Under the pieces are notes generated by a model that did no database searches, was not told the DNA's origin, and saw nothing but the letters and a program-made list of their open reading frames with translations. Positions 18,527 to 61,502 of a stretch of 64,000 nt of DNA are shown in pieces; the stretch's first letter is position 1; every line of letters starts with the position of its first letter. The position numbers and the translations under genes were made by a program. The DNA is from Nitrospirota bacterium (GTDB lineage: Bacteria; Nitrospirota; 9FT-COMBO-42-15; HDB-SIOI813): NCBI GenBank assembly GCA_020851375.1, contig JADZCV010000044.1, positions 192,285 to 256,284 of the forward strand, written 5' to 3'.

Positions 18527-18559
18527 GTCCTGACCTCCACTATGATGTTCACAGAAATT

Positions 18560-18645: not shown

Positions 18646-18647
18646 GC

Positions 18648-19457: not shown

Positions 19458-19787
19458 CTGAAAATGCTCCTATTCACCCTTCATTCCTACCGAACCAGTC
19501 CCCGCATGATTTAAGCACCCGTCATTCCCACGGAAGTGGGAATCCAGAACCAGGCCCACGGTCTGGATTCCCGCTTACGCGGGAATGACGTTTTCATTAA
19601 CCCTGGTGAGCCCTGAGCTGTGAGCTTGTCGAACAGTCGAAGGGCTCATGACGGTTCACCTTAAAATCCCCGTTATTTACCGCAAAGGCACAAAGGACAC
19701 AAAGAATTATATTTCAGATACATCATCCAAAAATGCTCCTATATACCCGTCATTCCTGCCTTCGCGGGGATGACGTTTTCATGATAC
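19458..19787 (-). repeat. composite palindromic repeat, copy 3 (full element plus truncated second copy)
   Basis: Leader acctgaaaatgctcctat, hairpin, core gtcattcccacggaagtgggaatccagaaccaggcccacggtctggattcccgcttacgcgggaatgacg, module C gtgagccctgagctgtgagcttgtcgaacagtcgaagggctcat, a CAAAG-repeat tract, and a second short copy (aaaaatgctcctatatacccgtcattcctgccttcgcggggatgacg). Confidence 0.85.
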
Positions 19788-21354: not shown

Positions 21355-22372
21355 AAAATTCTCCATTAGATGTGTTGACCCTGCCAGGTCGTTTACATAA
21401 CCATCTTGACGCCACATAATATGCCATATAGTCACCTATCGTTGCCTCGCCTCCGAATTCCTCTCTGCGGGACAGCGGATGCGTCATCAGGTAAAACATA
21501 CGACGCGCCTCTTTTCTGTTTAGAGGATGGCGGTTGCGCACCGTCTGGGGAATTGCCCGCACGAAATCCATCAGCGACCGCAGAGGAAAGAGAAAACTCA
21601 GGCTTCGGACAGCAATTCCGGTGTACAGGATGACATTCATCATGCTCATCGCCATAGCTTCGAAAAAAGGCAAACTCTTCCAGATCCCTGTCAGGGTATT
21701 CCTAAATGAGAAGTAGTTAATGGTGCTACTGGTCTGCCTGTGCGGGTTCGCCTTGTGACATACGACAACATCAGCATAGTAGTATGTAAGGAGACCTGCC
21801 TTAGACATCCTGTAGGAGAAATCAAGCTCTTCACCCTGGCGGAAAAATGTTTCATCAAAATAACCGATCTTATCGAAAACATATTTTCTGAAGAATGTCG
21901 AGCTGCCATTGAAACCAAAGGCAAAAAAGGATTTGTCGTGATAAAGGTCCCTGTTATGTGCGAACATAAAACCCTCGTCCTCCCTGGTATGGAAATTGAT
22001 TATCTTTGCAGTAATAACATCCGCTCCTGTTTCCTCAAACTTTGAAGCCACCTTCAGAAATGCCTCTTCATCTGCAAGTTCAGCATCATCATCCAGTATA
22101 AATATGATCCCGCCTTTTGCCTCAGCAACCCCCTTATTCCTCGGGGCAATAACACCTGTATTTTTATCCATCCGGATATATCTGATATAAGGGTATTGCC
22201 CCTGATATTTCGAAATCAGATGCTCCGTACCATCCGAAGAATCATTGTCAATAACAATGACCTCCTTTTCAACACCTTTCTGACTTGCAACGGAATCTAT
22301 CGCACCGGCCAAATCATCCTTTCTGTTCCAGGTCCCTATAATGACACTAAACAATATTGAGTTTGATGGCAT
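21341..22372 (-). CDS. GT2 glycosyltransferase
   Basis: FSVIIGTWNRKDDLAGAIDSVASQKGVEKEVIVIDNDSSDGT. Confidence 0.8.
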   Translation of the reverse strand: MPSNSILFSVIIGTWNRKDDLAGAIDSVASQKGVEKEVIVIDNDSSDGTEHLISKYQGQYPYIRYIRMDKNTGVIAPRNKGVAEAKGGIIFILDDDAELADEEAFLKVASKFEETGADVITAKIINFHTREDEGFMFAHNRDLYHDKSFFAFGFNGSSTFFRKYVFDKIGYFDETFFRQGEELDFSYRMSKAGLLTYYYADVVVCHKANPHRQTSSTINYFSFRNTLTGIWKSLPFFEAMAMSMMNVILYTGIAVRSLSFLFPLRSLMDFVRAIPQTVRNRHPLNRKEARRMFYLMTHPLSRREEFGGEATIGDYMAYYVASRWLCKRPGRVNTSNGEFYEDN

Positions 22373-24311
22373 TAGGATCTTCGCCCCGGATAAATATCCT
22401 GCACCACATTTCCATTAAGATAATTTTATAGGAAAAGAATAAATCTTCCCCCCTGGAAATACTCCTGTCTATAAATGCCATTACCGCATCCCTTTTCACC
22501 ACGCCGCCTGAGACCAGGCAGCCGTCATGGCATAAACTGCCATACCTGCTGATCACGGCATTATACCAATCCTTTACAGGCGGCGTAAATCCCCTCTTCC
22601 GCCTGTTCAGTATTTCATCAGGCACAATACCCTTCATTGCATCAATAAACCATTTCTTATACCCCAGCTTATAGTCATCTTTATATGTCTTTCTCAATCC
22701 CATTATCAGTTCTACAAACCTGTAATCAAGAAAGGGGAGACGGAGTTCAACAGAAGAGGCCATACTCATTCTGTCCCCCAGGGCAACACAATTGGAATAG
22801 AGCCATGTCTGATACAGGATTTTGCAGATTTCAATCGGGACCTCATCCCAATCTTTGCCGGTAAAAAAGGAAAATAATTCTTCCTCCTGGATCTTCTGTT
22901 TGAACTCCTCCCTGTAAAGGGTTTCCAGATAACCAAAGGCTGATAAAAAATCATCATCATCATAAAGAATAAATGTGTCTGGTTTGGATAATACCTTGTC
23001 GTACCGAACCCTTATATTTTTAAAATTGTTAATCACAGAGATTACAGCCGGTATCATCTGCTGTCTTTTTCCGATATTTCTGATATCTGTATAAATATTT
23101 TTTATGAGTAACTGCAGGGATTGTACTTCATTATTGGAAATGGACTTTTGTTTCTGCAGGTTTTTTTCAACCGCTGTTGTAACCCCCAGATATCCCCAGA
23201 AAAGCTCATCCCCTCCTATGCCGCTCAATATAACCGGGACATTGTGCCTCCTGGCGAGTTTGTTGACAGAGTAATAACCAAAGGCTGCAATATCTGCAAT
23301 AGGATCATCCATGGCATAGACCATTTCAGGAAATGAGTTGACAAGGTCTTCTGTGTTTAATTCTATTTCATGATATGAAAAGCCAAGCTGATTTGATAAC
23401 CCCATGGCCATCTCTCTCTCATCGTTCTGCGGATGTCCCGGATATCCGACACTGAAGGCATGCATCTTTTCCTTGTAATATCTGGCGCCCAATACAGCAA
23501 TCGCGCTTGAATCTATACCACCTGATAAAGAAATGCCCACAGGCACATCGGACCTGATGATAATCCCCGACAGGTCTTCAAATGCCTCTCTGATGAGCTG
23601 GGATGGGTTTCCGGACACGGGTTTCACGTCTTCAAAATCCCAGTACTTTCTCAGTTCATATTCAAAGGGATTTAAAGAGACCATCATGTAATGGGCGGCA
23701 GGGAGTTTCAACACCCCCTCAATGCATGTATAGGGTTCCGGCACGTACTGATAGTGAAAGTACATATTTACTGCATCCGGATTTAACCTGACATCCTTTT
23801 CGCGCAGGCAGACCAGTAAAGATTTCATCTCTGATGAAAAAACGACCCCATCCTCTGTCTTATAGTAGTAGAGTGGTTTTTCGCTTAAACGATCCCTTGC
23901 AATAAAAAGCGTCTGTCTCTTTTTATCAAAGAGCGCAAAGGCGAACATACCCCTGAGGTTTTGAAGGCATGCCTCTCCTGATTCCTCGTAGAGATGCAGG
24001 ATCGGCTCACAATCACTTTGAGTTTTAAATTTGTGACCCCTGTTTTCCATCTCTTTGCGAAGTTCGATATAATTATAAATCTCGCCGTTAGCCACCAGCA
24101 CAAGGGATCCATCCTCATTGTACAGCGGCTGATTCCCGCCTGCGAGGTCTATTATCTTCAAACGCCGCATGGCAAGGGCAATATTCGTATCCTGATAAAA
24201 ACCCATGCTGTCCGGGCCGCGGTGAACCAGCGCATCATTCATCCTGTTCAGGATTGCGATATCCGCTGGCTTCAATGGATTGCTGCTTATCAGGCCTGTG
24301 ATGCCGCACAT
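22347..24311 (-). CDS. asparagine synthetase (glutamine-hydrolysing) family amidotransferase, polysaccharide-associated (WbpS-like)
   Basis: MCGITGLIS N-terminal nucleophile Cys2; SGGIDSS PP-loop; 654 aa. Confidence 0.8.
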   Translation of the reverse strand: MCGITGLISSNPLKPADIAILNRMNDALVHRGPDSMGFYQDTNIALAMRRLKIIDLAGGNQPLYNEDGSLVLVANGEIYNYIELRKEMENRGHKFKTQSDCEPILHLYEESGEACLQNLRGMFAFALFDKKRQTLFIARDRLSEKPLYYYKTEDGVVFSSEMKSLLVCLREKDVRLNPDAVNMYFHYQYVPEPYTCIEGVLKLPAAHYMMVSLNPFEYELRKYWDFEDVKPVSGNPSQLIREAFEDLSGIIIRSDVPVGISLSGGIDSSAIAVLGARYYKEKMHAFSVGYPGHPQNDEREMAMGLSNQLGFSYHEIELNTEDLVNSFPEMVYAMDDPIADIAAFGYYSVNKLARRHNVPVILSGIGGDELFWGYLGVTTAVEKNLQKQKSISNNEVQSLQLLIKNIYTDIRNIGKRQQMIPAVISVINNFKNIRVRYDKVLSKPDTFILYDDDDFLSAFGYLETLYREEFKQKIQEEELFSFFTGKDWDEVPIEICKILYQTWLYSNCVALGDRMSMASSVELRLPFLDYRFVELIMGLRKTYKDDYKLGYKKWFIDAMKGIVPDEILNRRKRGFTPPVKDWYNAVISRYGSLCHDGCLVSGGVVKRDAVMAFIDRSISRGEDLFFSYKIILMEMWCRIFIRGEDPNAIKLNIV

Positions 24312-25438
24312 AATATAGCCTCTTTGACCCCTTCGGCGGTATGTTCGGCGCCGTAGTTTCTTATCATTTGCCTGGATGCGTCAGCCATTTTCTGCCTCAG
24401 GCCGTTGTCTGCAGTCATCTTCTTCATGGCATTATATAATTCATGGGGATCACTGTCCCGTACAACAAAACCATTTACACCGTCTCTTACCAGATCAGCC
24501 GATGCCCCCACTTTATCCGTTGTGATTACAGGCAGGCCGGATGCCATCGCCTCGTTGATTACCAGTCCCCAGACCTCTTCATGAGAGGGTAGCAGGAACA
24601 GATCAGCGAGGCCGAAATACCGCGGCAACTGTTCATATTCAACAAAACCTGCGAATACCACATCGTCTATATTTTCCTGAAGGCATCTCTTTTTCATGGC
24701 ATCTTCTTCCATACCAGCGCCGGCAATCAATAATGTCACATCTTTAATATCTTTCTTTAACCAGGAAAATGCAGATAACAGATCATATACCCCTTTTCTT
24801 TCTATCAACTGACCTGCATACAACAAGGCTAATCCTGTCTTTATCCCCAGCTTGAATCTTAATGCCTCCCGCTCCTCAGTTGTCATTCTGGAATTAATTT
24901 CAAAGAAAGAGTTGTCCACTGTATTCCATCCCATGAATATCCTGTCTTTCTCTGCGCCCAGATCCATAAGATATTCCTTTGCCCTCGTCCCATAGGCAAT
25001 ATACGAATCCGAATTCCTTACAAGGTATTTTACAAGAGGCTTGCTAACCGTCCTGCGCCACGAGGGCTCATTGATCGTACTCCCTGACCAGAGGATGAAT
25101 TTCTTATTGTAAATCCTGCAATAGATGTACGCCATGTATGATGCGAGAGAATCCCAGCCGCAGGATACAACGACATCGGGACAGGCATTCTTAAGCTCTG
25201 AAAAGGCCGTGTAATTGATGTGCATGGTGAAGATGTCTTTTCCCTTCATCCTAAACGGTGTGTCTGGAAGGATTTTGTATTTAAATCTCAGGCGGGAGAG
25301 GTCAAATCTCCAGTTCCTGTTCATATCCGTTTCATTCTGAAAGAAGACTGTCAGATTATTATCCAGGACTTCGTTAAGGACATTGAAGCGTTTAATCTCA
25401 TAAGGCGTTATGACATTTTCTATGATTACAATCCTCAC
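24290..25438 (-). CDS. GT4 (group 1) glycosyltransferase
   Basis: EVWGLVINEAMASGLPVITTDKVGASADLVRDGVNGFVV, the E-x7-E GT4 motif region. GTG start at 25438 directly downstream of repeat-borne GGAG. Confidence 0.8.
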   Translation of the reverse strand: MRIVIIENVITPYEIKRFNVLNEVLDNNLTVFFQNETDMNRNWRFDLSRLRFKYKILPDTPFRMKGKDIFTMHINYTAFSELKNACPDVVVSCGWDSLASYMAYIYCRIYNKKFILWSGSTINEPSWRRTVSKPLVKYLVRNSDSYIAYGTRAKEYLMDLGAEKDRIFMGWNTVDNSFFEINSRMTTEEREALRFKLGIKTGLALLYAGQLIERKGVYDLLSAFSWLKKDIKDVTLLIAGAGMEEDAMKKRCLQENIDDVVFAGFVEYEQLPRYFGLADLFLLPSHEEVWGLVINEAMASGLPVITTDKVGASADLVRDGVNGFVVRDSDPHELYNAMKKMTADNGLRQKMADASRQMIRNYGAEHTAEGVKEAILCAASQA

Positions 25439-25557
25439 CTGAAAATGCTCCTATATACCCGTCATTCCTGCGTAAGCGGGAATCCAGACCGATGGCCTGG
25501 TTCTGGATTCCCACTTCCGTGGGAATGACGTTTTCTCTGTCCCTTTTTCTTATCCAT
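25439..25557 (-). repeat. palindromic repeat, copy 4 (leader + core)
   Basis: ctgaaaatgctcctatatacccgtcattcctgcgtaagcgggaatccagaccgatggcctggttctggattcccacttccgtgggaatgacg. Confidence 0.85.
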
Positions 25558-26292: not shown

Positions 26293-27406
26293 AATGGTTA
26301 ACCTCTTCCGTAATTGTTGATACCTCCGCATCTGTTAACTGGGGAAACATGGGGATGGAGACAATCTCCCTGGCAAGTCTCTCTGCAACAGGAAAACTTC
26401 CTGCCGGACATCCGAGGTCTTTATATGCCTCCTGCAGATGGACCGGCACAGGATAATGTATCGTTGTCTTAATCCCCTTTTCTTCTAAATAACCCTGAAG
26501 CCTATCCCTTTCAGGGTGTCTTATCACGTAGAGGTGAAACACATGCCTGCCATAGCTCATTACAGGAGGTTTTTCAACACGTGGGTTTGTGATCCCGTTA
26601 CTATAGTAGTCCGCAATCTTTCTGCGGCGACTGTTCCAGTCATTCAAATAGTTTAACTTGACCCTCAGGATTGCGGCCTGCAGCTCGTCCAGTCTGCTGT
26701 TGAACCCTTTGATCTTGTGATAGTAGCGTCTATCCTGACCATAGTTCCTAAGCATCTTCAGCCGTTGTCCCTCTCCGGCATCACGCGTCACGATAAGCCC
26801 TCCATCTCCATAGGCGCCAAGATTCTTGCTCGGATAAAAACTAAACGCGGCATAATCCCCCATAGTACCCGCCTTCCGGCCCTTGTACTCAGCCCCGTGG
26901 GCCTGACAGGCATCTTCTATCACCTTCAGACCAAACTCTGTCGCGATCTCAAGGATCGGATCCATATCCGCACACTGGCCATAGAGGTGTACCGGGACGA
27001 TGGCCTTAAGCCTGTTCCCCCAACGCCTCTTCTCCCTCGTAACAACCTCTCTGAGCTGGGCAGGGTCCATGTTGTAACTGCGCGGGTCCACGTCAACAAA
27101 CAGCGGAATCGCCCCTGCAAGACTAATAGCCGAAACAGTGGGCACTGCGGTATTGGGGACAGTAATGACGAGATCGCCATATTCTATACCCGCTGCCACC
27201 AGAGCAAGATGTATGGCCTCGGTACCGGACCCCACCCCCACGGCATGGACATCGCTCCCAAGGTATTTAGCGAATGCTGACTCAAAGCGCTCCCCTTCCT
27301 CACCGAGAACAAACCAACCCTTTTCACACACCCCCCTGATAGCCTGCCCCAGTTCGCCCGTAAGCTCCCGGTATTCCCTGCTCAAATCACCAAACGGTAT
27401 CATCAA
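26285..27406 (-). CDS. DegT/DnrJ/EryC1/StrS-family PLP-dependent sugar aminotransferase
   Basis: MIPFGDLSREYREL... AVGVGSGTEAIHLAL... IVPVHLYGQCADMD... KVIEDACQAHG. Confidence 0.85.
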   Translation of the reverse strand: MMIPFGDLSREYRELTGELGQAIRGVCEKGWFVLGEEGERFESAFAKYLGSDVHAVGVGSGTEAIHLALVAAGIEYGDLVITVPNTAVPTVSAISLAGAIPLFVDVDPRSYNMDPAQLREVVTREKRRWGNRLKAIVPVHLYGQCADMDPILEIATEFGLKVIEDACQAHGAEYKGRKAGTMGDYAAFSFYPSKNLGAYGDGGLIVTRDAGEGQRLKMLRNYGQDRRYYHKIKGFNSRLDELQAAILRVKLNYLNDWNSRRRKIADYYSNGITNPRVEKPPVMSYGRHVFHLYVIRHPERDRLQGYLEEKGIKTTIHYPVPVHLQEAYKDLGCPAGSFPVAERLAREIVSIPMFPQLTDAEVSTITEEVNHYG

Positions 27407-27586
27407 TGATGGCCACCCATTCCCGTCATTCCTGACATCCCCGTCATTCCCGACATTCCCGACATCCCCGTCATTCCCGACATCCCCGTCATTCCTGACA
27501 TCCCCGTCATTCCTGACATCCCCGTCATTCCCGCGGAAGCGGGAATCCAGATCCCTGCATAAACCCTTCGGCAGTTTCCCGCCTTA
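27407..27586 (-). repeat. repeat copy 5: 18-bp tandem array plus terminal hairpin
   Basis: About 6.5 tandem units of ccccgtcattcc[c/t]gacat between about 27419 and 27540, then cccgcggaagcgggaatccag hairpin. The unit is an expansion of the cgtcattcc arm of the repeat family. Confidence 0.85.
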
Positions 27587-27871
27587 AAGAATCTCTTCAC
27601 ACAAATCTCGCCAATCAGGATTCTGCTTCTCTATCAATTCCAGCTTCCAGCTTCTATTCCATTTCTTTATCTGTTTTTCTCTGCTAATAGCCGATTCCAT
27701 ATCTTCATGTAATTCGTAATAGACAAGACGATGAATACCGTATCTTTTCGTGAAACCCTCGACCAAATCATTTTTGTGTTCCCACGTTCGCTTGATAAGG
27801 TCGCTAGTCACTCCAATATAAAGAGTACCGTTTCTCTTGCTGGCAAGGATATAAACCGCTGGTTGCTTCAC
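27587..27871 (-). CDS. GIY-YIG nuclease-superfamily small protein (COG2827/UPF0213-like)
   Basis: VKQPAVYILASKRNGTLYIGVTSDLIKRTWEHKNDLVEGFTKRYGIHRLVYYELHEDMESAISREKQIKKWNRSWKLELIEKQNPDW, the canonical GIY...YIG...R...E...N architecture. GTG start at 27871 preceded by GGAG with 8-nt spacing. The longer track ORF (to 28003) merely translates the upstream repeat. Confidence 0.8.
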
Positions 27872-28113
27872 CTGAAAATGCTCCCATTTACCCGTCATTC
27901 CCACGGAACCTGTCCCCGCATGATTTAAGCGGGAAGTGGGAATCCAGATCCAGGCCTCGGTCTGGATTCCCGCTTTCGCGGGAATGACGTTTTTCTTGAT
28001 CATTTCTGGATTCCAGCTTCCGCGGGAATGATGTTTTTCTTGACCATTTCTGGATTTCCGCTTTCGCTGGAACGACGTTTTCGTGACACCTTGCGAGCTC
28101 GAGGCTCATGACG
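27872..28113 (-). repeat. composite palindromic repeat, copy 6 (leader, hairpin, core, two degenerate core half-copies, module C)
   Basis: ctgaaaatgctcccatttacccgtcattcccacggaacctgtccccgcatgatttaagcgggaagtgggaatccagatccaggcctcggtctggattcccgctttcgcgggaatgacg... then ttccgcgggaatgatg / ttccgctttcgctggaacgacg degenerate arms, then gcgagctcgaggctcatgacggttcacc. Confidence 0.85.
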
Positions 28114-28115
28114 GT

Positions 28116-45913: not shown

Positions 45914-47649
45914 TTCTTCTTTTCCCCGGTACTATCCAGGAGGGCCTGAAGACGCACCCTCGTTTCCGCATGTGAGGGGTCCAGGGCAGCGGCATTCTGA
46001 TAGGCACGAATCGCCTCCTCGAACCTCCCCTCCTTCGTGTAGAGCACTCCCAGGTTAAAGAATGGCAGGTAGTTGTTGCTGTGACGCTGTATTGCCTTCA
46101 TAAAGATCTCTTCTGCAAGCCCCGGCCTGTTCTGTTCATAGTATATGATCCCGAGGTCATTATATATCTGCAGATTACCCGGATTGCCTTTAAGCAGATC
46201 TTCCAGTTCAGTGGCCGCAAGGTCCAGTTTCCCCTGGACTATATATATCTGGGCAAGGTTGTGTCTCGCTGTCAGACTCTCCTGTCCATCATGGATCGAG
46301 ATACTTGTGCGCAATGACTCAATGGCCTGATCATACATCTTCATGTCTTTGTATGCAATCCCAAGTCCTGCATGTGCGATGGATGAACCCGGGGCCTTTT
46401 TTACTGTATCTGTCCAGAGGGTCAGGTCATCCCTCCACTCCGTGTTCCGTATAATGGTCACTGCAGAATATGCTGCGCAAAGGGCAATCAAGAGAAACAG
46501 GGCAGCGGCCCGGGACACAGAACTACTCAATTTATCCAGGACAACACCTGCAAACACTGCCATAGTTATTATTGCCAGATATCCCCTGTGCTCCTGCAGT
46601 ATCAGGTTAAGGGGGATAACTGTCGTAGGCAGAAGCACGATAAAAAACCAGAACATGAAGAATGAAACAACCCGCCAGGACGCTGTGGATGACCGGAAAA
46701 GAAGCAGGGCAACTGCAGTATAGACAGAAAGCACAACTGCAGAAAAGATGACTGGAATCGTGACAGTCCTGTAGACCTCCATGTCGTGGACCAGGGTTAA
46801 TGGTATGGGGACAATAAACATCTGCAGATATTTAACAAGTGCAGGAAGTTCCGTAAAAAACTGGGTTACCGGATCCCTCTTAAATGAGTGAGGCGCCCCG
46901 CTGAAGGCAACCCCCCAGACATAGAGATAGGGTATGACCACAATAAGGATAAATGGAAGGTAGGGGGTATATTTGCGCCAGTCCTTTAAGTGGCGCTGTG
47001 CAGGGGTGCGTCGTTCCCGGAGGAGGTATACGTCATATAGCCATAATACGAGGGGAAGGGTGACGGCAGACTCCTTGCTCAGCATCCCTGCTGCAAAGGA
47101 AAGCAGGGATGCAATATAAAAAAAAAGGTTTAGATCCCTCCGGAACCTGACCCAGCAATAAAAGGCAGACAGATAGAAGAAACCGCTCATGACGCTGGAG
47201 CGCGTTGATATGTAATTTACGATCTCTGAGTTGAAGGGGTGGACGAGAAAGATGATGCCTGCTGACAGGGCCGCAAAAAAGGCCGGGGTGGTGAATATGG
47301 CCCGGACTATCAGAAAGAGCAGAAAGGCTGACCCGGCATGAAAGGCGAGGTTGACTATGTGGTATCCTGCAGGGTTTAGACCATTTACCCGGAAATTCAG
47401 TGCATAGGTCAACATCAGGAGGGGCCTGTACGGAGAGCCCCTTTTCATCCCCTCATTGCTGAATGTGGAGGGATCGGAAAAAAGGGAAGATAGCCCGGAC
47501 AGGTCCCGTATACCGGGATTCATGGTGATATGGTGGGCATCATCGTAGTGAAATGGATTGTGTATCGAGTTGTAGTAGAGCAGTCCTGCGATCAGTACAA
47601 AGGAAAGGAAGGTAGTGCAGACTATAACCCGGTTACTGTAACGACTCAT
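45910..47649 (-). CDS. TMTC-like protein (membrane domain + TPR), paralog 2
   Basis: First-loop HNPFHYDDAHHI motif, LVHPFNSEIVNYISTRSSVMSGFFYL block shared with the paralog at 62353, C-terminal TPRs (LGIAYKDMKMYDQAIESL...). Confidence 0.7.
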   Translation of the reverse strand: MSRYSNRVIVCTTFLSFVLIAGLLYYNSIHNPFHYDDAHHITMNPGIRDLSGLSSLFSDPSTFSNEGMKRGSPYRPLLMLTYALNFRVNGLNPAGYHIVNLAFHAGSAFLLFLIVRAIFTTPAFFAALSAGIIFLVHPFNSEIVNYISTRSSVMSGFFYLSAFYCWVRFRRDLNLFFYIASLLSFAAGMLSKESAVTLPLVLWLYDVYLLRERRTPAQRHLKDWRKYTPYLPFILIVVIPYLYVWGVAFSGAPHSFKRDPVTQFFTELPALVKYLQMFIVPIPLTLVHDMEVYRTVTIPVIFSAVVLSVYTAVALLLFRSSTASWRVVSFFMFWFFIVLLPTTVIPLNLILQEHRGYLAIITMAVFAGVVLDKLSSSVSRAAALFLLIALCAAYSAVTIIRNTEWRDDLTLWTDTVKKAPGSSIAHAGLGIAYKDMKMYDQAIESLRTSISIHDGQESLTARHNLAQIYIVQGKLDLAATELEDLLKGNPGNLQIYNDLGIIYYEQNRPGLAEEIFMKAIQRHSNNYLPFFNLGVLYTKEGRFEEAIRAYQNAAALDPSHAETRVRLQALLDSTGEKKK

Positions 47650-48443
47650 GGAGACTTAGCGCACCGGAAGCCCTGATCATAAGTAGTATGCCAGTCAAGC
47701 CCTCTCGTAGCAAGAGAGGACTCAATTGCATAACGGGAAGACGTTCGGGCATAACGATACAGGGGGGTCACGTACGACCCTCCACGCACTGACCTGTAAT
47801 TTCCACTGTAATATCCGTCCGGCAATGTATTTCCAGGATAGGCCTCATACCACCCGCCAGTCCACTCCCGCACATTACCGGTCATGTCATAGACTCCATA
47901 GGGGCTGACATCTTCAGGATAACTTCCAACAGGCGCACTCCATTTTCTACCTGACTCGAGGGTATTTGCCTTCCCTGCAGCATACTCATCCCCCCAGGAC
48001 CAGAGCCTGCCGTCCGTTCCACGGGCTGCCTTCTCCCACTCCGCCTCTAATGGGAGCCGCTTGCCAACCCATGTGCAATAGGCATCTGCATCCATCCAAT
48101 CTACATCAACGACCGGATGGTCATGCTCACCCTTTTCAAAGGTTCCCATCTCAGCCCAGGGAGCCGGGCGGTATACATTGTTTGTTTTAATTAGAAATTC
48201 ATAAAACTGGGCATTGGTGACCTCGTAACGGTCTATGTAAAAATCCTTTACATAAACCCTGTGCCTGGGGATTTCATCCACTCCTATCGTCATACCAAGC
48301 CGTCCTTCAGTTCCGCTGCTCCCCATCTCAAACCATCCAGCCGGTACAAAGACCATATTCTCCGGAGGTGAATTGCCGCGCATATTATACTGATGACTGC
48401 AGCCAAACAGTAGGGTTGCTAAAAGAAAGAGCACAGGAAGCAT
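47646..48443 (-). CDS. FGE-sulfatase (SUMF1/formylglycine-generating enzyme) domain lipoprotein, paralog A
   Basis: Lipobox MLPVLFLLATLLFGC at chosen start 48443 (the track start is 48614). Domain motifs RVYVKDFYIDRYEVTN, YCTWVGKRLPLEAEWEKAARGTDGRLWSWGDE, GVYDMTGNVREWT, RGGSY. Confidence 0.75.
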   Translation of the reverse strand: MLPVLFLLATLLFGCSHQYNMRGNSPPENMVFVPAGWFEMGSSGTEGRLGMTIGVDEIPRHRVYVKDFYIDRYEVTNAQFYEFLIKTNNVYRPAPWAEMGTFEKGEHDHPVVDVDWMDADAYCTWVGKRLPLEAEWEKAARGTDGRLWSWGDEYAAGKANTLESGRKWSAPVGSYPEDVSPYGVYDMTGNVREWTGGWYEAYPGNTLPDGYYSGNYRSVRGGSYVTPLYRYARTSSRYAIESSLATRGLDWHTTYDQGFRCAKSP

Positions 48444-48471
48444 CTTTTGTCTCCTTTCACCGGGAATATCA

Positions 48472-49302
48472 TCATAGACCATCCACAGCACACCGGAATC
48501 CGTGGGCCGGGTGGTCCCACTTTGGGGCAACTGCATGCCTGTAGGCACTCCTCGCAAAGGGCACGGACGGGTTCTCCCATGACCCGCCGCGTAAAACCTT
48601 GTATTTCTCACCAAATGCCTCCCTTTGAAGGGTACTGCCTGGATACGGCTTATACCATGATGATGTCCACTCCATCACACTCCCGGCCATATCGTAAATC
48701 CCGTAAGGGCTCACACCCTCAGGATAACTTCCGGCCGGTGTTGTCCAACCTGCTCGGGCCTCTCTCGTATTTGCCATTATCTTTCCTTCCGGACCAAAAA
48801 AATCATTTCCCCAGGGCCATTGACGGCCATCGGTTCCCCTTGCGGCCTTTTCCCACTCCTCTTCTGTCGGGAGCCTCTTACCAGCCCAACGGCAATAAGA
48901 ATCCGCATCATACCAGGATACGCCCTTCATCGGGTGAGTATCTTCCGGTTCAGGATAAACATTAATATATGACTCAATTGTCCATATCCTCGGGGCCTTT
49001 CTACCCGTGACATCCAAAAACCTCCTGTATTTCTCAACCGTAACCTCGAAACGGTCCATATAAAACCCATTCACATAGACACTGTGCTGAGGGATTTCAT
49101 CTACCCCCACTGATTGGCCAGGGATGCCATCATCTTCCCTGCTGCCCATAAGAAACCACCCTTCAGGTATATACACCATATCCGTGGTGTCTGGAACCGG
49201 TTTCACGCTGCTCACGGTATGAATGCACCCCGCAAGTAAGAGGACCGTCGTAAGACACACTGCAACCCGGCAGTTATTAATGAGCCCTGTCATCTTCCGC
49301 AC
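48472..49302 (-). CDS. FGE-sulfatase domain lipoprotein, paralog B
   Basis: Lipobox VCLTTVLLLAGC. Motifs YMDRFEVTVEKYRRF, YCRWAGKRLPTEEEWEKAARGTDGRQWPWGND, GIYDMAGSVMEWT, RGGSW. Confidence 0.75.
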   Translation of the reverse strand: MRKMTGLINNCRVAVCLTTVLLLAGCIHTVSSVKPVPDTTDMVYIPEGWFLMGSREDDGIPGQSVGVDEIPQHSVYVNGFYMDRFEVTVEKYRRFLDVTGRKAPRIWTIESYINVYPEPEDTHPMKGVSWYDADSYCRWAGKRLPTEEEWEKAARGTDGRQWPWGNDFFGPEGKIMANTREARAGWTTPAGSYPEGVSPYGIYDMAGSVMEWTSSWYKPYPGSTLQREAFGEKYKVLRGGSWENPSVPFARSAYRHAVAPKWDHPAHGFRCAVDGL

Positions 49303-50134
49303 AACGAAAACCTATTCCCCTGTGCCTGTAATCAGGCTTGAAGGTATTGGCCCGGTATGCTGCCCTGCTGTATGGCATGGCCGGCATAACTAACGACCCG
49401 CCCCGTGTGACTTTGTATGTCTCTCCAAAGGAATCCCTCTTAAGGGTGCTCCCAGGGTAGGGGAGGTACCAGGAGCTGGTCCATTCGCTCACATTACCGC
49501 ACATATCATAAACTCCATAAGGGCTTACGTCATCGCTGACACTTCCCGGAGGAAGGATCTGTCCCGGGCCTGCATACCGGGTGTTGCAGGTATGTCCTCT
49601 AAGATCACTCCCCCAGGGCCATTGGCGGCCGTCTGTGCCCCTTGCAGCCTTTTCCCACTCCTCTTCTGCAGGGAGCCTCTTTCCAGCCCAACGGCAGTAG
49701 GCATCCGCATCGTACCAGGTTATATTCGAGACAGGGATGTCTTCAGTTCCTTCTGGCGGGGTGTTGCCTTTCCACGAAGATGCCCCGGGATGTTTATCAT
49801 CAGGCGCTGAATGGCCGGTCGCATCAATGAAGGCCTTGTACTGACGGTTAGTCACCTCGTACCTGTCAATATAAAATGCCTTCAGATATACTGACCGCTG
49901 GGGAATCTCATCCACCCCCACGGACTGGCCCACCAACCCATCCTTCTCAGTGCTACCCATGATGAACTCTCCTGCAGGTACATGCGCCATCTGTTCCTCA
50001 GTCACCGTCTGACCGGCAGATGATGCAGTCACGACCATTCCTGCCAGGAAAACCTGCACTAATAAAAACAATGCGCCTGCCTGCTTCACCTGATTTTCAT
50101 CTGCCTTTGTGAGCCCTGGCTCATGACGGTTCAC
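49277..50134 (-). CDS. FGE-sulfatase domain protein, paralog C (signal-anchor N-terminus)
   Basis: YIDRYEVTNRQYKAF, YCRWAGKRLPAEEEWEKAARGTDGRQWPWGSD, GVYDMCGNVSEWT, RGGS. GTG start at 50134; the first roughly 10 codons lie inside the repeat's module C. Confidence 0.75.
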   Translation of the reverse strand: MNRHEPGLTKADENQVKQAGALFLLVQVFLAGMVVTASSAGQTVTEEQMAHVPAGEFIMGSTEKDGLVGQSVGVDEIPQRSVYLKAFYIDRYEVTNRQYKAFIDATGHSAPDDKHPGASSWKGNTPPEGTEDIPVSNITWYDADAYCRWAGKRLPAEEEWEKAARGTDGRQWPWGSDLRGHTCNTRYAGPGQILPPGSVSDDVSPYGVYDMCGNVSEWTSSWYLPYPGSTLKRDSFGETYKVTRGGSLVMPAMPYSRAAYRANTFKPDYRHRGIGFRCAEDDRAH

Positions 50135-50332
50135 CTGAAAACGCTCCTATTCTCCCGTCATTCCCACGGAACCTGTCCCCGCAGGATTTTTCACCCCGTC
50201 ATTCCCACGCAAGTGGGAATCCAGAACCAGGCCCACGGTCTGGATTCCCGCTTACGCGGGAATGACGTTTTCATGAACCCTGGTGAGCCCCGAGCTCATG
50301 ACGGTTCATCCAAAAATGCTCATGTGTAGCTG
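50103..50332 (-). repeat. composite palindromic repeat, copy 7 (module C inside the CDS N-terminus, leader, hairpin, core, second module C)
   Basis: gtgagccctggctcatgacggttcac + ctgaaaacgctcctattctcccgtcattcccacggaacctgtccccgcaggat... cgtcattcccacgcaagtgggaatccagaaccaggcccacggtctggattcccgcttacgcgggaatgacg ... gtgagccccgagctcatgacggttcat. Confidence 0.85.
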
Positions 50333-53023: not shown

Positions 53024-53102
53024 TGAATTATTATATATATAATTTAAAACCTGTCAACGGAATCTGCCCTGATTCATAAAGACAGCCATAGGGCGACTCA
53101 GG

Positions 53103-56162: not shown

Positions 56163-59100
56163 CTAATACGGTACCAGTAATTCAAATGCGCCGCCAACAG
56201 CCTGCAATCTGATCCAGTAGGCCTTCCATGGCTGCATCACAGGGCTGCAGCGGGTGCCTTGATGCTCTCCTGCCACGTCACTGGCACAGGTCTCAAACGT
56301 ATAATTGATGCCATTGTAGGTATAAATAGACCCATCAAGCCAGTTCAGGGCTGCAACTGCATCCTGGAATGACGCTACCTGCACCTGTCCCTGAACCGTC
56401 CGCCTGACATACAGGCCCTGCTCCCGCTCTTCTATACTGCCATTGCCATTGGCATCTACAGGGCTGAAGTTTGTCTCCTTGTCAAACGGGTTGCCGATCA
56501 TGTTCCATCCACCCTTAATTGATAATGCGTAGCACTCAAAGGCGCCCCCATTATCGTCAGTACAGGTCTCAGTGGAAGACTGAGTTGACGCAGGGGGGAC
56601 ATCAAGCGTGAACTTTCCAGCCGGTGCCCAAAGTAAATATCCGGTACCTTCGCTGACAGAGGTCAGCCTTGAACATGTATATTGTGCCGGATTTGAACTG
56701 AAAGGGCCCGGCTCTCCATCATAACAGCCGCTGTCAAAGTCTGATCCCCTTGAATCCCACCGGTATACCTGCAGCTTATAGTCCGGGGTCACTACGTCAT
56801 CACCAAATACATCCTTAGGTGTATCAGGATTGGGATGATACGGCACAGATATCAGGTTGTATGCATAGGGGGCAAGGGGTGTCATACCCTTTGCCGGCCC
56901 GGTTGAGATAAGGGACCTATGGTCCTCAGCTACTGAGGAGTTCGCATCCGCCCCCCTCTCATCCAGTGCCCTGATAGCAAAATAGAACCTTGTATTCAGT
57001 GTCCTGTCGTCAATCACCCCGCCGCCTGTGTCTATCTTATTCTCAACAGGGACAATGTAGCATTCCTTCATTCCTGGTGTGCGGGGGGCCAAAAACCCTT
57101 CTGCCGGTGCAGCAAGTATTGCATTGGAGAATGGAATCTGGCCGGGACCAGGTGCTGAACTATCAACGACGATCTCTCTCGTGGAATAGCGCATGTCATA
57201 TCCTGTAACAGCCCCTGAGGACATATCTGACCCGTCGTCCGGCGGCGCAGTCCAGCAGAGTGTCATGGTGTCTTTTGACGCATCTGTTACCGAAAGGTCT
57301 GAAATAGCGCCAGGCCTTGTTGTATCATCCGATACGAGCGTGTGTGCCGGACATCCGGAACAGGTCGAGATAGAAGAGACATTGCCTGCATCATCCGTTG
57401 TCTTAAGTGCAATGTAATAATTGGTATTGGCAAATAGCTGCGAAATCGTGCATGACTCAGACTCCCCTGCAGATTTGGGCTTTCCAGGTATACTTTCTCC
57501 GGCTTTACAACTGACTGCCCTGGCCGCCTGTATGAAGTTGCCATCTGTAATAGGGGATGTTGAATACCGCAGGTCATAGTATGCTGCGGTATCACTCATA
57601 CCGTCATCTCCTGGTGACGTCCATGAGACCTTGAAAGAGGTTGCAGTAATATCGCTAATGTCAAGGACTACAGAGGCAGGGGGTGTCGTATCACTACTGT
57701 TGATAACCGCCCTGACTGAATCAACCTTTCCGCTGTCCCCGGTTGAACGAATATCAAACAGGATCGTCTCAGAACCTGAGGTAAATGACGAAGGCGGGGT
57801 AATCCGGAAAGTAAAGAATGGGAACTCTCCCCCGTTATAGTTCGCCGGATTCCCTGCAGTTGCAGTCGGTACATTCACAGGGGAGCTGTACTCAACAACA
57901 CTGCCGTCATTTAGTCTCTCCTGCATCACAACACCCCAACCGCCGGATGGCGTGTTCCAGGAAATAAGATAGCTGTCTGCAATATTCCCTTCATTCTGTA
58001 CGCCAACCGTTATCTCCTTAGATGAGCCGTTTGAGATGTCAAGTGCGGTGCAACCACCGTTGCCTAAACCCAGCGCCCCGTATATGTTGTCCCCGGCCCC
58101 CGCTGTACCACAGCCTGCACCCAAAGTTCCGTAGCCTGAAATAGTACCTCCCGCATTATAACCAAAACCATAGATGACCCCGTCAACTTTGTAGGTCGCC
58201 TTTAAATCGAGGCGGGCCTTGAGCGAGTCCATATATTGTGCAGCGCCGTTAGAATAGATATTGACGTCAATATCTGCTGCCCGGGGCTGGCCTGCCGGAA
58301 TAATTTTTAATGTAAATATCTGTTCAAAATCACTGTGGGGCTGAGACCTTACCGGCGCAGTGGTAAACCCGACTGATGCTGTAATGCCATGATCGCCTGA
58401 ATCGTCACTGATAACTGCTGTCCAGCCAACAGGGAGAGGGTTTCGGAGAGAGAGGGTATAGGTATCCGGAACATTCCCCTCATTTTGCAGGGTAATAGTA
58501 TATGAGATGCTGTCCCCTGGCCCCGCCTCCTTAATCTGGGACGTGCCACCTCCTCCGGTGCGGGCCGGGTCATACTGGTTGTTTCCATCTCCGTCAATCA
58601 GGCCATCCGCCTGATAAATACTGTTGATTTGTGTGGCTGCCCGGATAGAATCTACCTTCGCATAATCATTTTCCGAGCGGAGATTAACGATAATGTCCTG
58701 CGTGACAGCGCCCGGGGCATATGCAGAAGGGGTAACCTTCAGTGTATAGGCCTTTTCCGAACCCGCGTTCAGTGATACGGAGGCAGGGGATGTCAGGTCA
58801 GCGTTGCTGTCATTCAATAAGACCGCCCAGTCCCCGGATATATCTGAAGGGGTGTTCCAGGAAATAATAAAGGTATCGTCCACACTCTGAGATGTGCCGT
58901 CATTTTGAACCTGTATATCATACGTAAGCGGCTGCTGGAGCCTGAATCCGGGATCTGCGTTCTTTGAAGCCTCCCCTCCTGCACCTGATCCAAAGGACCC
59001 GTAAGCATTATCACCATTTGCCTCAATGATCAGGTCAGGCTGGTACACACCACTCGCTGTAAAATAGCCGATCCGGCTTTCACGTAAAAACGGGGTCACT

Positions 59101-61502
59101 GTACCCAGCTCTGAAAACAGGATGACCCTGTATTGCAGCCACTGGTCGTTATTATTGCCGCTATAGCCGCTCCTGTGGGCCGGGTTTATCGGCTCCCTTC
59201 CATCAGGGTCAGTATAGGTATCTGTAAAGGTAGATCCGGATGAATATGTATAAGAAGTGGCTGAGTCAAGTGTAATAACAGATGTTGCCAGATTGACATC
59301 TGTGATCTTTTTTGTTTCATTCTGATTGGCGTTTGCACTATTGGTAATAGTGACCCTGCCGCCGGCACTGAAGCCGGCCGCACTTCCCACGGAAATCTGA
59401 GAAACACCTTTTGCGGCTGAAAATGTCGTTGAATGGGGCCCATACCACTGACTCCATGAGGAACCGTTAGGAGATGTCCTTAACTGGAGCGAAACATCAG
59501 TACCTGCGGGGATATCCTCTGACCATTTCCAGCGATTGATGACATCAGCTGTATCTGTTGTATCATAGGGTGAACTGATCAGCATCTGCAGGGAGGGTAT
59601 CTCCTCAAAATTTATCGTTACATCGTTTAGTTTCGGGTCATATGCCGGGTCAATCTCAGGCCTCTCGAAAAAGGCCTTGAAACGTATGTAGCGCCGTTCA
59701 TTATGACCCTGATTAATGGTGGCCCCGGGGCTTACATAGTCATAACCAGACTCCCCTGGAAGCTCCTCATAATTCCACGTCTGGTTATCGTTATTCGTGG
59801 CAATCTGAAACTTAAGTGATGAACCTGCAGGCACAGTAGCGCCCCATGTAATGGATTTAAAAAAGGCCCCGCCAGTACCAATATCAAATGAAGGGGACTC
59901 ATAGGCGCCGAGAAGAAAAGAAGCCAATCCATAATTAACCGTCACATCCTGCAGTACAGGACTGTCGGCAAGATCGGTCGTCGCCCGGTGGAAAAAGGCC
60001 TTGTACCGGACATAGCGGTCTCTGTCATGGACTGAAGAGATGGCAGCAGGAGAACTGTCATAATATGTGCCTGATGTCCCGTCCGGCCCCTTAAAATTCC
60101 ATGTCTGGTTATCGTTATTTGTGGCAATCTGAAATTTCAGAGTAGACCCTGAAGGTACGGTCGCGTTCCAGACAAGGGTATGCAGGAGGGCCCCCCCGGG
60201 ACCTGTATCAAATGAAGGGGACTCGTAACTGCCGTCAGTAAATCCGGCGGCAATCCTTAAAGAGGCATTCACGTCAGGATAGGCGGTTTTCACATCAAAG
60301 GCATCTACTCCTACCGCTACATTTAATGCACTGTTGTTTTTCTTCCCTGTGACCACAATCCTCAGGGTATGTGCGGTGTTGCTCAGACCGCTGACTGTAA
60401 ACAGGGATTGCCTGGACAGGAGTGTGCTGCTGTAAAGGTCAACACTCCCCTGAAGCTGCCCGTCGAGGAAGACATTTGCTATTCCAAAATCACGGTATTT
60501 TGGACCATACCAGGTCGCCTGCGTCCCTGTAAAGGCAAGGGTAGCAGAAGCGCCTGTTTCAATGGAAAATATAATGGTCCCGCCATAGGCACCTGAAGAA
60601 AACCACTGCCCGGTCGTGACCACAGCAGGATTTGTCTCCTCATATGTTGTCGTGGCATAGTATCCGGTCCCAACCAGTTGCAGGTTAGTCAGTGTCCCCC
60701 TGTCAAAATCAAGCAGATCTGCCTTCTGCGTAACAGAAGATGTCCCATCAACGAAGGTTATGTATGCACCGGCGTCCGGGTTCGGAACACCTACAATAAA
60801 GGCATACACTCCCACGGCAGGATCGGATGAACTGCTGTTTTTCCTGCCTGTGACCACAATCCTGAGGGTATGCTGTGTGTTGCTCAGACCACTGGCTGTA
60901 AAGAGGGTCTGCTGAGACTGGAGTGTGCTGCTGTACAAGTCAACGCTCCCCTGAAAGTTTCCATCCAGATAAACATCTGCAATTCCAAATGAATTGTATT
61001 TCGGCCCAATCCATGTCGCCTGCGTTCCTGTAAAGGTAAGGGTAACCGTAGCGCCTGTCTCTACAGAAAAAATATACCTTCCACCGGAAGGATTATATAA
61101 CGTTGAAGAATACCACTGCCCGGTCTTGCTGACTACCGACGTATTATCTTCCTGATATGTTGTGTAATTATACCCACCTGTCCCGACCAGTTTGAGATTG
61201 GTCAGGGTACCCCTGTCGAAATCATTCAGGTCTGCTGTCTGAATTATGGAGGCAGGTTGAGGGAAAATAGAAAGCTCTCCGGCTATTGAGGTACTTACAT
61301 ATGGGTCCTTACTGTAAAATTTGGTCCATCCGGTTTGTCCACCAGGATGGACTGCAGTGGCAGAGGTATCAGCTCCTCCTGTCCAGTCGCTCTGGACCCA
61401 GTTATAATTGGAGGCATAAAGGGACCCAGGTGTACATAACAGAATAAGGGTCAAAATTTGCACTATAAATGCCTTTGCCTTATCTCTCATGTCTGTATCC
61501 AT
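56163..61502 (-). CDS. giant secreted surface protein (1779 aa) with internal tandem duplicated domains, FN3 domains and a conserved C-terminal domain
   Basis: Signal peptide MDTDMRDKAKAFIVQILTLILLCTPGSLYA. Two roughly 173-aa tandem repeats (ADLNDFDRGTLTNLKLVG... / ADLLDFDRGTLTNLQLVG...) and a second repeat pair (GSTLKFQIATNNDNQTWNF / GSSLKFQIATNNDNQTWNY). FN3 motifs SWTSPGDDGMSDTAAYYDLRYS and CWTAPPDDGSDMSSGAVTGYDMRYS. Ser/Thr-rich. Confidence 0.7.
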   Translation of the reverse strand: MDTDMRDKAKAFIVQILTLILLCTPGSLYASNYNWVQSDWTGGADTSATAVHPGGQTGWTKFYSKDPYVSTSIAGELSIFPQPASIIQTADLNDFDRGTLTNLKLVGTGGYNYTTYQEDNTSVVSKTGQWYSSTLYNPSGGRYIFSVETGATVTLTFTGTQATWIGPKYNSFGIADVYLDGNFQGSVDLYSSTLQSQQTLFTASGLSNTQHTLRIVVTGRKNSSSSDPAVGVYAFIVGVPNPDAGAYITFVDGTSSVTQKADLLDFDRGTLTNLQLVGTGYYATTTYEETNPAVVTTGQWFSSGAYGGTIIFSIETGASATLAFTGTQATWYGPKYRDFGIANVFLDGQLQGSVDLYSSTLLSRQSLFTVSGLSNTAHTLRIVVTGKKNNSALNVAVGVDAFDVKTAYPDVNASLRIAAGFTDGSYESPSFDTGPGGALLHTLVWNATVPSGSTLKFQIATNNDNQTWNFKGPDGTSGTYYDSSPAAISSVHDRDRYVRYKAFFHRATTDLADSPVLQDVTVNYGLASFLLGAYESPSFDIGTGGAFFKSITWGATVPAGSSLKFQIATNNDNQTWNYEELPGESGYDYVSPGATINQGHNERRYIRFKAFFERPEIDPAYDPKLNDVTINFEEIPSLQMLISSPYDTTDTADVINRWKWSEDIPAGTDVSLQLRTSPNGSSWSQWYGPHSTTFSAAKGVSQISVGSAAGFSAGGRVTITNSANANQNETKKITDVNLATSVITLDSATSYTYSSGSTFTDTYTDPDGREPINPAHRSGYSGNNNDQWLQYRVILFSELGTVTPFLRESRIGYFTASGVYQPDLIIEANGDNAYGSFGSGAGGEASKNADPGFRLQQPLTYDIQVQNDGTSQSVDDTFIISWNTPSDISGDWAVLLNDSNADLTSPASVSLNAGSEKAYTLKVTPSAYAPGAVTQDIIVNLRSENDYAKVDSIRAATQINSIYQADGLIDGDGNNQYDPARTGGGGTSQIKEAGPGDSISYTITLQNEGNVPDTYTLSLRNPLPVGWTAVISDDSGDHGITASVGFTTAPVRSQPHSDFEQIFTLKIIPAGQPRAADIDVNIYSNGAAQYMDSLKARLDLKATYKVDGVIYGFGYNAGGTISGYGTLGAGCGTAGAGDNIYGALGLGNGGCTALDISNGSSKEITVGVQNEGNIADSYLISWNTPSGGWGVVMQERLNDGSVVEYSSPVNVPTATAGNPANYNGGEFPFFTFRITPPSSFTSGSETILFDIRSTGDSGKVDSVRAVINSSDTTPPASVVLDISDITATSFKVSWTSPGDDGMSDTAAYYDLRYSTSPITDGNFIQAARAVSCKAGESIPGKPKSAGESESCTISQLFANTNYYIALKTTDDAGNVSSISTCSGCPAHTLVSDDTTRPGAISDLSVTDASKDTMTLCWTAPPDDGSDMSSGAVTGYDMRYSTREIVVDSSAPGPGQIPFSNAILAAPAEGFLAPRTPGMKECYIVPVENKIDTGGGVIDDRTLNTRFYFAIRALDERGADANSSVAEDHRSLISTGPAKGMTPLAPYAYNLISVPYHPNPDTPKDVFGDDVVTPDYKLQVYRWDSRGSDFDSGCYDGEPGPFSSNPAQYTCSRLTSVSEGTGYLLWAPAGKFTLDVPPASTQSSTETCTDDNGGAFECYALSIKGGWNMIGNPFDKETNFSPVDANGNGSIEEREQGLYVRRTVQGQVQVASFQDAVAALNWLDGSIYTYNGINYTFETCASDVAGEHQGTRCSPVMQPWKAYWIRLQAVGGAFELLVPY

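Follow-up and report, generated by a model that had tools for sequence, protein, structure and literature searches.

In a 64,000-nt stretch of the genome of a Nitrospirota bacterium (assembly GCA_020851375.1, contig JADZCV010000044.1; hereafter the window), a short module, termed S, that forms the end of intergenic mosaics of NTS-type hairpin repeats probably now provides the Shine-Dalgarno (SD) sequence and the GTG start codon of the operon genes downstream of it. The initial annotation of the window had described five genes beginning with a GTG placed 8-10 nt after a repeat-borne GGAG. All five sites were found, on the minus strand, with the GGAG or AGGAG separated from the GTG by 9 nt in the S copies and by 10 nt at position 14879.

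The S module and its copies

The intergenic mosaics consisted of NTS-type hairpins (CGTCATTCCCGCG-N4-CGCGGGAATCCAG) and accessory modules, of which S, C and D were, as far as searched, specific to this lineage. The S motif, ATAGGAGCATTTTCAG-GTG on the minus strand, stood directly ahead of five open reading frames (ORFs) when read in the gene direction, and the window genes around the S copies were all on the minus strand. The 19-mer CACCTGAAAATGCTCCTAT (reverse complement ATAGGAGCATTTTCAGGTG) occurred exactly at 19455-19473 and 25436-25454, where GTG 19457 and GTG 25438 were the starts of an SDR gene and a GT4 gene, respectively. Two further copies contained one mismatch each: the copy at 27869-27887 (ATGGGAG; AAATGGGAGCATTTTCAG+GTG), with GTG 27871 opening a GIY-YIG gene, and the copy at 50132-50150 (GCGTTTT; ATAGGAGCGTTTTCAG+GTG), with the GTG at 50134-50132 being the annotated start of the third FGE-sulfatase paralog. 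The copy at 14877-14896 was a one-base indel variant, ATAGGAGTTATTTTCAGGTG (ATAGGAGTTATTTTCAG+GTG), and its GTG 14879 was the start of a NeuA/PseF-like gene. A diverged copy (S2, 19724-19742) ended in ATG and had no gene after it; with this copy included, five matches to the 19-mer were counted versus 0.01 expected by chance. Each S copy lay directly 3' of the hairpin-repeat arm GGGAATGA(C/A), also written GGGAATGAC. The whole module was about 30 nt long (GGGTAWATAGGAGCATTTTCAG-GTG-AA) and held the AGGAG, a 9-nt U-rich spacer and the GTG. Most copies continued with AA after the GTG, and the repeat consensus probably ends in …CAGGTGAA. The TAG within ATAGGAG formed an in-frame stop 15 nt upstream of the GTG at 19457, 25438 and 50134; at 27871 it was changed to TGG, and the GIY-YIG ORF was therefore open upstream.

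The genes served by S were unrelated (CTP_transf_3/PseF-like, referred to here as NeuA-like; SDR; GT4; GIY-YIG; and FGE-sulfatase), and four of the five sat in one nonulosonic-acid/glycan cluster. Copies in relatives were sought in two scans of a genome-contig collection for S-containing patterns, which returned first no match and then three chance matches in Firmicutes, the host species apparently being outside that collection. A metagenome scan returned 16 matches, five of which, on WBZO01 contigs, were real repeat copies. Of these five exact copies, all joined to the same hairpin arm, two ran into module C, one preceded a 6-codon ORF and one was fused in frame to a pilin-like gene; the fifth read GTG AAA TAA, ahead of a gene that had an AAGGAGG and an ATG of its own. 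In the WBZO01 relative, S-related endings (GGGGATTTTCGGATGAAA and GGAGATTTTCGGATGAAG) also adjoined hemC and a heptosyltransferase gene. Judged from the sequence, S belongs to the repeat and not to the genes, because the same motif preceded unrelated genes, its attachment to the arm was constant, and WBZO01 copies occurred without a gene after them. At the NeuA-like and GT4 genes, the fusions with S-GTG recurred in close relatives from other samples, where the genes were intact at ~95% identity; these fusions are thus inherited, and they are compatible with gene function. Another repeat type, rich in CCCCCTTT…AAAGGGGGG (translated …PFYKGG…), was seen before S-like endings in two loci (L008, ~1701-1760; L019, ~820-886), at hemC and the heptosyltransferase gene of the WBZO01 relative.

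Start codons of the downstream genes

For four of the genes (NeuA-like, SDR, GT4 and GIY-YIG) there was little choice of start, the S-borne GTG being the sole canonical start codon downstream of the repeat that leaves the conserved domain whole. The conserved domains began at residue 4-5 (CTP_transf_3/PseF), residue 14 (adh_short of the SDR) and residue 5 (GIY-YIG), and the N-terminus of the GT4 protein aligned residue for residue with that of its ortholog. The next canonical in-frame starts were found at codons 48 (NeuA-like), 30 (SDR), 39 (GT4) and 21 (GIY-YIG). The NCBI annotation agreed on the GTG for the NeuA-like gene (MCC7202807.1, 234 aa), the GT4 gene (MCC7202815.1, 382 aa) and the FGE gene (285 aa). 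Many other genes in the window also had SD-led starts. We infer that ribosomes initiate at the S-borne GTGs.

Orthologs without the repeats

The initial annotation had proposed a comparison with orthologs that lack the repeat, and such a comparison, made with the loci L029, L026 and L003, revealed different, tightly coupled starts. The same glycan gene cluster was present in L029, L030 and L031 (10-16 kb) with zero NTS, S or C copies. Genes in the orthologs met at tight junctions, with an ATGA overlap or gaps of 5-15 nt, versus S-ended mosaics of 119-330 nt in the window. Between the methyltransferase and GT4 genes, L029 read TAG, 15 nt and ATG AAA GTT GCA ATC; in the window, the 15-nt spacer was replaced by a 119-nt mosaic (25439-25557, minus strand; an NTS inverted doublet with terminal S) between TAG and GTG AGG ATT GTA ATC, so that the GTG occupied the same codon position as the ortholog ATG. 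At the junction of the DXPS-like and NeuA-like genes, L029 read AAC TGA AGATA TTG GCC TTC ATC, with a likely TTG start 5 nt past the stop and a called GTG start (GVG...) at 41 nt. The window read AAG TGA AG, followed by the mosaic from module C to S and by GTG GAC ATC TTA GCC TTC ATC. This mosaic (14880-15106, minus strand), which extended from the DXPS-like stop (15107-15109) to the NeuA-like start, contained a long variant of module C, NTS copies and S. The sole plausible ancestral start of the NeuA-like gene, the TTG at codon 4, is now TTA, and the GTG lies three codons upstream of it.

The SDR gene overlapped the HAD gene in L026 (ATGA TCGAC, MIDALF…), and in the window it began GTG AAA CAA ATA ATT GAC, the ancestral ATG being now ATA and the start shifted three codons upstream. 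The mosaic at this junction (19458-19787, minus strand) contained a degenerate hairpin, the S2 copy with its ATG, a D module ending in GGGGATTTTAAGGTG, a long module C, an NTS doublet, an interrupted NTS and S. In the intermediate relative L023 (93% identity), the HAD-SDR junction was a 68-nt spacer that held a diverged S on its own, and the gene began with ATG (GGGGCATTTTCAG ATG ACA CAG GGA ATT GAC). A 72-nt insert in L023 had ATGA on both sides where L026 had a single ATGA. Between the cytochrome and FGE genes, L003 (82% identity) read TGA, 15 nt and TTG AAG CAG, and the window contained a 198-nt mosaic (50135-50332, minus strand) with an S2-like motif (50307-50324), module C, an NTS inverted doublet (50197-50267), an interrupted NTS and S. 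By sequence comparison, the native starts were replaced and then decayed where the start had shifted. The initial annotation had also stated that the repeats donate N-terminal codons to the downstream genes. This was borne out only for the FGE gene and for the GIY-YIG gene as called by NCBI, since the three codons gained by the SDR gene and by the NeuA-like gene aligned with native sequence. The region 22347-25438 also differed from its counterpart in L029 (3492-5460) in gene content: between the GT4 gene and an asparagine-synthase-like gene, the relative carried two additional genes (172 and 481 aa), both without a Pfam match, that the window lacked.

The mosaics probably inserted at very tight operon junctions (stop/start overlaps or gaps of 5-15 nt), where a very stable RNA hairpin would have come to part translationally coupled genes. 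Lying 3' of the arm in the direction of transcription, the S end would then offer an unpaired SD and a start codon to the gene that follows. In the predicted mRNA, the NTS doublets gave hairpins with folding energies of -50 to -63 kcal/mol (z -5 to -6), and the centroid structures left S unpaired; where module C followed, S was predicted to lie in a loop closed by an AUGACGG/CCGUCAU stem. A consensus scan found no sigma-70-like promoter on the gene strand inside any mosaic, and no terminator-like site was found on that strand inside the mosaics. Operon transcripts that run through the mosaics are therefore the most likely source of mRNA for these genes.

The FGE gene and other points against start donation

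Several observations weigh against the donation of starts by S. The NCBI (PGAP) start of the SDR gene was an ATT at codon 5 (265 aa), and that of the GIY-YIG gene was an ATG within the hairpin arm (104 aa, MTGKWEHFQVKQP…). AGGAG was judged to be an SD by the canonical consensus and not by the anti-SD of the host 16S rRNA. The polarity of the start-codon changes was deduced by parsimony from a few lineages, and an in-frame gene fusion was found in just one of the five WBZO01 S copies. The remaining points concern the FGE gene, whose ortholog N-termini (MKQISRVFLL…, MIFLLYQAF… and MRRRLQTGII…) aligned with a second in-frame GTG at codon 16 (50087-50089, minus strand; MKQAGALFLLVQVFLAGMVVTASSAG). 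On the evidence of the L003 and L002 orthologs, this downstream GTG 50089 is the ancestral FGE start.

The third FGE-sulfatase paralog (49277-50134, minus strand) comprised 285 aa from GTG 50134, an exact match to the NCBI protein (P0001), and 270 aa from GTG 50089. From the second GTG, the sequence read as a typical signal peptide (MKQAGALFLL...). The initial annotation had attributed the first ten or so codons, VNRHEPGLTK, to the module C palindrome. The translation of the reverse complement of 50105-50134 (GTGAACCGTCATGAGCCAGGGCTCACAAAG) was indeed VNRHEPGLTK, and the repeat-encoded stretch proved to be longer, with 15 codons (45 nt, 50134-50090) up to the second GTG at 50089-50087. These codons followed from a short module C, AACCGTCATGAGCCAGGGCTCACAAAGGCAGATGAAAATCAG (50090-50131, minus strand), which begins with CGTCAT, then a GAGCC/GGCTC palindrome, encodes NRHEPGLTKADENQ and is absent from L002. 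The latter, a related strain 97% identical over the first ~460 nt, read …GGAATTTTCAGGTG/AAGCAGGCAGGC, with a different repeat module that had the same ending, TTTTCAGGTG, and without module C. The 45-nt module C thus represents a recent insertion in frame, with TCAGGTGAA on both sides. Only the read-supported upstream junction of L002 was used, because FGE paralogs 3 and 2 are joined in this hybrid locus: its first ~460 nt resembled paralog 3 and the remainder paralog 2, which may reflect a recombinational deletion between the paralogs or an assembly join. The Logan contig L001 was set aside; it contained the exact FGE protein but differed upstream of CAGGTGAACC and may be a repeat-induced assembly path.

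The later insertion of the 45-nt module in frame past the S-borne GTG left two in-frame GTGs, with the good SD at the upstream one. The upstream GTG had AGGAG at 9 nt, and the downstream GTG had only AAGG at 15 nt. Initiation at 50134 seems slightly favoured. The 15-codon extension appears to be an optional, polymorphic add-on inside the signal peptide. If made, it would belong to the n-region of a signal peptide that is cleaved off; the mature protein would stay the same, and the extension should be nearly neutral. The proposal that the repeats act as initiation cassettes with repeat-derived starts is largely upheld, through domains and orthologs, for the other four genes, and the FGE gene, with its ancestral start at 50089, is the weakest case. 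The window contained three tandem FGE-sulfatase paralogs (47646-50134) downstream of an 896-aa multihaem cytochrome gene, and an exact look-up of the cytochrome protein returned no match. A perfect sigma-70 consensus (TTGACA-16-TATAAT) was present at 53030-53057 on the minus strand, just upstream of the cytochrome start at 53023.

Alternative explanations

The most serious alternative, which is possible although clearly less probable than a role of S in translation, is that S mainly serves the structure or the targeting of the repeat, for instance as a flank required for mobilisation or recognition, that its likeness to an SD with a GTG is incidental and is tolerated beside genes without having been selected for translation, and that the exact junctions reflect a preference of insertion for RTGA(A). 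All module boundaries read RTGA(A): GGATGAA/CCGTCAT (50309), CAGGTGAA/CCGTCAT (50134), CAGGTGAA/GCAG (50089), TGGTGA/ACCGTCAT (the epimerase stop) and AAGTGAAG/CGCGATGAG (the DXPS-like stop), and the native sites were NTGAAR in three of the five cases. S copies often ran into module C or had nothing after them, and the 72-nt insert of L023 between two ATGA copies, as opposed to the single ATGA of L026, fits the same explanation. The RTGA(A) at the boundaries could represent a target preference, a target duplication, microhomology or ends intrinsic to the modules, and a target cannot be defined from as few as three to five junctions. A structural origin of S is moreover compatible with its later use as a translation start, and the decay of the ancestral starts, together with the conservation of AGGAG and GTG across strains, suggests that the GTG became functional.

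An annotation artefact, in which the GTGs would merely be the first start-like codons in frames left open while the true starts lie elsewhere, is improbable. The second GTG of the FGE gene at codon 16 suits the ortholog N-termini, and the choice of ATT and of the upstream ATG by PGAP for the SDR and GIY-YIG genes would agree with it. However, the next canonical starts of the NeuA-like, SDR, GT4 and GIY-YIG genes lie well inside the domain, the ancestral starts are now the non-start codons ATA and TTA, and the GTG of every copy lies 9-10 nt from a canonical AGGAG. Least likely of all is that S is a shared regulatory leader, bound by an RNA-binding protein or a small RNA, that co-regulates the polysaccharide and FGE genes like the contact-regulated REP2 genes, since, although four of the five genes sit in one nonulosonic-acid/glycan cluster, REP2-linked genes are co-regulated in Neisseria (PMC3184786) and S is predicted to lie in the AUGACGG/CCGUCAU-closed loop when module C follows, no Rfam family and no promoter-like element were found, and in the relative S also stood at unrelated genes (pilin-like, with related endings at hemC and the heptosyltransferase gene).

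Hairpin repeats and accessory modules

The hairpins that carry S are not a novel class of repeats: they form NTS/dRS3-type mosaics accompanied by an SsnA-like nuclease. Hairpins of the form GTCATTCCC-N8-GGGAATCC gave 14 dRS3-type cores versus 0.4 expected, mostly in inverted doublets. The 28-nt consensus of the Neisseria Transformation Sequence (NTS), CGTCATTCCCGCGMAVGCGGGAATCYRG, which contains dRS3 (ATTCCC-N8-GGGAAT), had 13 matches in the window with at most three mismatches (three perfect and three with one mismatch), and none was expected by chance. The published degenerate pattern for Ssn-related motifs (SRM), HGTCWYN(0-2)YYVSBRHN(0-5)WNVSBRGN(0-2)RNCYNB, gave five matches, all on the gene strand, versus 0.34 in shuffles, and no match in the partner arms (CCCACGGAAGTGGG variants) or in module C. 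Module C (AACCGTCATGAGCC…GGCTCAC…ATGAAAAY) was present in five copies, every one in the gene orientation, and despite its initial CGTCAT it was rejected as an SRM, since it did not match the published pattern. Module D also ended in …GGGGATTTTAAGGTG. Integron attC cassettes were ruled out by the lack of core-site features, and a search of the repeats against Rfam returned no family. With regard to the terminal inverted repeats and target-site duplication of a MITE, the NTS doublets were inverted repeats, the mosaic ends (module C versus S) were not, and RTGA(A) flanked three blocks, perhaps as a module-intrinsic feature.

Two mosaics lacked S, one between the SDR and aldehyde dehydrogenase genes and one between the ssnA-like and DegT genes, and in both cases the downstream gene kept its own SD and ATG. 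The former, an NTS inverted doublet at 18527-18647 (minus strand), served as the contrast case, its gene retaining a GGAGG SD. An interrupted NTS stood beside S at 14906-14950, 19480-19520, 27895-27935 and 50160-50195, the interruption being an insert of about 25 nt (CGCTTAAATCMTGCGGGGAC…TTCC, a small hairpin itself) in the loop between GGATTCCCACTYCC and GTGGGAATGAC. At the NeuA-like locus of the relatives L043-L045, the NTS was uninterrupted. Elsewhere in the window, a 1779-aa ORF (56163-61502) contained long internal direct repeats of 282 nt at 501-nt spacing and of 149 nt at 324-nt spacing.

The ssnA-like gene and a possible route of spread

The GIY-YIG gene (27584-27871, minus strand) encoded a single-domain protein of 95 aa with the Pfam GIY-YIG domain at residues 5-77, and it was flanked by NTS copies both upstream (27962-27989) and downstream (27523-27550). 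Its homologs, of 96 aa and 80-91% identity, were found in Nitrospira, Nitrospinae, Armatimonadetes and Deltaproteobacteria, and GTG 27871 stood in place of the usual ATG-TCN start of the family (MSKQP to VKQP). Residues Y7, Y18 and E65 were recognized by eye (cf. the catalytic Y6, Y17 and E64 of N. meningitidis SsnA). NCBIfam gave only a sub-threshold intron-endonuclease match, and a PDB sequence search with the protein returned spurious WD40 matches only. In its size, its single domain and its flanking NTS copies, the gene fits the SsnA family (GIY-YIG_unchar_3, cd10448) of single-stranded DNA (ssDNA) nucleases, which are single-domain GIY-YIG proteins of about 94-96 aa. Together with its NTS arrays (27407-28115), it constituted a 709-nt insertion relative to the syntenic L029, in which the epimerase and DegT genes were 22 nt apart. 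The upstream mosaic (27872-28115, minus strand) contained module C right after the epimerase stop (TGGTGA/ACCGTCATGAG), three NTS, an interrupted NTS and S, and the downstream mosaic (27407-27583, minus strand) contained the one NTS at 27523-27550 and a tandem array derived from the NTS arm, with no S. This array (27400-27551), between the ssnA-like and DegT genes, ran in a 9-nt register over about 12 steps, with the units GGAATGACG and GGGATGTCA.

NTS copies were also found on both sides of ssnA in the homolog loci L035-L042. There, one and the same 96-aa ssnA gene (homolog P0242, 91% identical) lay in a unit with imperfect ~28-nt terminal inverted repeats (GGGTCTTCTCCCAATCGAGTGGGTA … TACCCACTCACTTTGGAGAAGACCC) and a single NTS to either side of the gene. 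No fewer than five different left flanks were seen among the metagenome contigs, and the unit looks like a mobile element of the insertion-sequence kind, a mobility only hypothesised in the SsnA paper. The possibility that S is the native leader of ssnA was ruled out, since the canonical ssnA units elsewhere consisted of NTS, 9 nt and ATG TCT, with no S.

The resident SsnA-like GIY-YIG ssDNA nuclease would be the obvious suspect for the spread of the mosaics. Judged from the oligonucleotide lengths given in PMC11893778, the SsnA cut would fall some 3 nt 5' of CGTCAT. At the S-C junction (…TTTTCAGGTGAACCGTCATGAGCC…; cf. ATGAAAACGTCATTCCC), the corresponding position was GTG^AAC-CGTCAT, the point where S meets gene sequence, and this coincidence is worth testing but is not a result. 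Quite speculatively, the mosaics may have spread as ssDNA units bounded by SsnA-type cuts, preferring RTGA(A) at the stop/start overlaps of tightly coupled operon genes and duplicating or regenerating that sequence. If this were true, the upstream gene would keep its TGA and the downstream gene would get an SD and a GTG, and a selfish repeat with its own translational punctuation could colonise operons without killing them.

Comparison with known repeat systems

Repeats that provide a ribosome-binding site (RBS) and a start codon are known in principle, and S is a variant of them. The closest examples are REP2 of Neisseria (Parkhill 2000; Morelle 2003; reviewed in Delihas 2011, PMC3184786) and the similar IR sequences of Borrelia plasmids, and the Neisseria genome with REP2 also has dRS3/NTS hairpin mosaics. 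Like REP2, S has an RBS and an initiation codon within the repeat and is fused in frame to ORFs. REP2 is 120-150 bp long and has its own promoter, two internal stem-loops and an ATG, with no attachment to dRS3 described, whereas S, compared here by description and not by sequence, is ~30 nt long, has no promoter-like site, uses GTG, is always on an NTS arm and lies inside operons. The hairpin mosaics themselves come closest to the NTS/dRS3/SRM repeats with SsnA and to the neisserial intergenic mosaic elements. In Chenal et al. 2025 (PMC11893778), NTS/dRS3/SRM repeats were tied across phyla to ssnA, a small single-domain GIY-YIG gene that is typically flanked by repeats and whose product cuts ssDNA a few nt 5' of the NTS. 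The hairpins of the window fit the 28-nt NTS consensus and the NTS-ssnA-NTS layout was as published, but the host here is a Nitrospirota metagenome-assembled genome, and the published work (PMC11893778) describes no translation-initiation module on NTS and no replaced gene starts.

In the pneumococcal BOX elements (Croucher et al. 2011, PMC3049150), boxC can provide the start codon for a transcribed ORF extending beyond the repeat. The BOX ORFs are novel hypothetical peptides without a good SD, in contrast to the conserved enzymes and the canonical repeat-borne SD in the window. The short GC-rich hairpins, inverted doublets, intra-operon mosaics and single repeat-flanked nuclease gene also resemble REP/BIME and REPIN-RAYT systems, with a GIY-YIG nuclease here instead of an HUH Y1 transposase and without a GTAG 5' tetranucleotide. 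REPs are not known as donors of start codons. Literature searches linking GIY-YIG with REP returned no match, and those linking GIY-YIG with REPIN returned only restriction-enzyme papers.

Implications

What is new here is the combination of a tiny module without a promoter-like site, the use of GTG, the attachment to NTS/SsnA hairpins, the Nitrospirota host, the tight operon junctions and the empty-site evidence of replaced starts. For annotation, the consequence is that pipelines disagree on the starts of such genes and that some of the called N-termini are encoded by the repeat. The findings extend the NTS/SsnA system to Nitrospirota and bear on the puzzle of where REP2-like start-site repeats come from, a question raised in the review of Delihas 2011 (PMC3184786). 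With empty-site controls at one locus, they suggest that hairpin repeats can invade coupled operon junctions and that the genes may stay translatable through the SD and start codon at the mosaic end.

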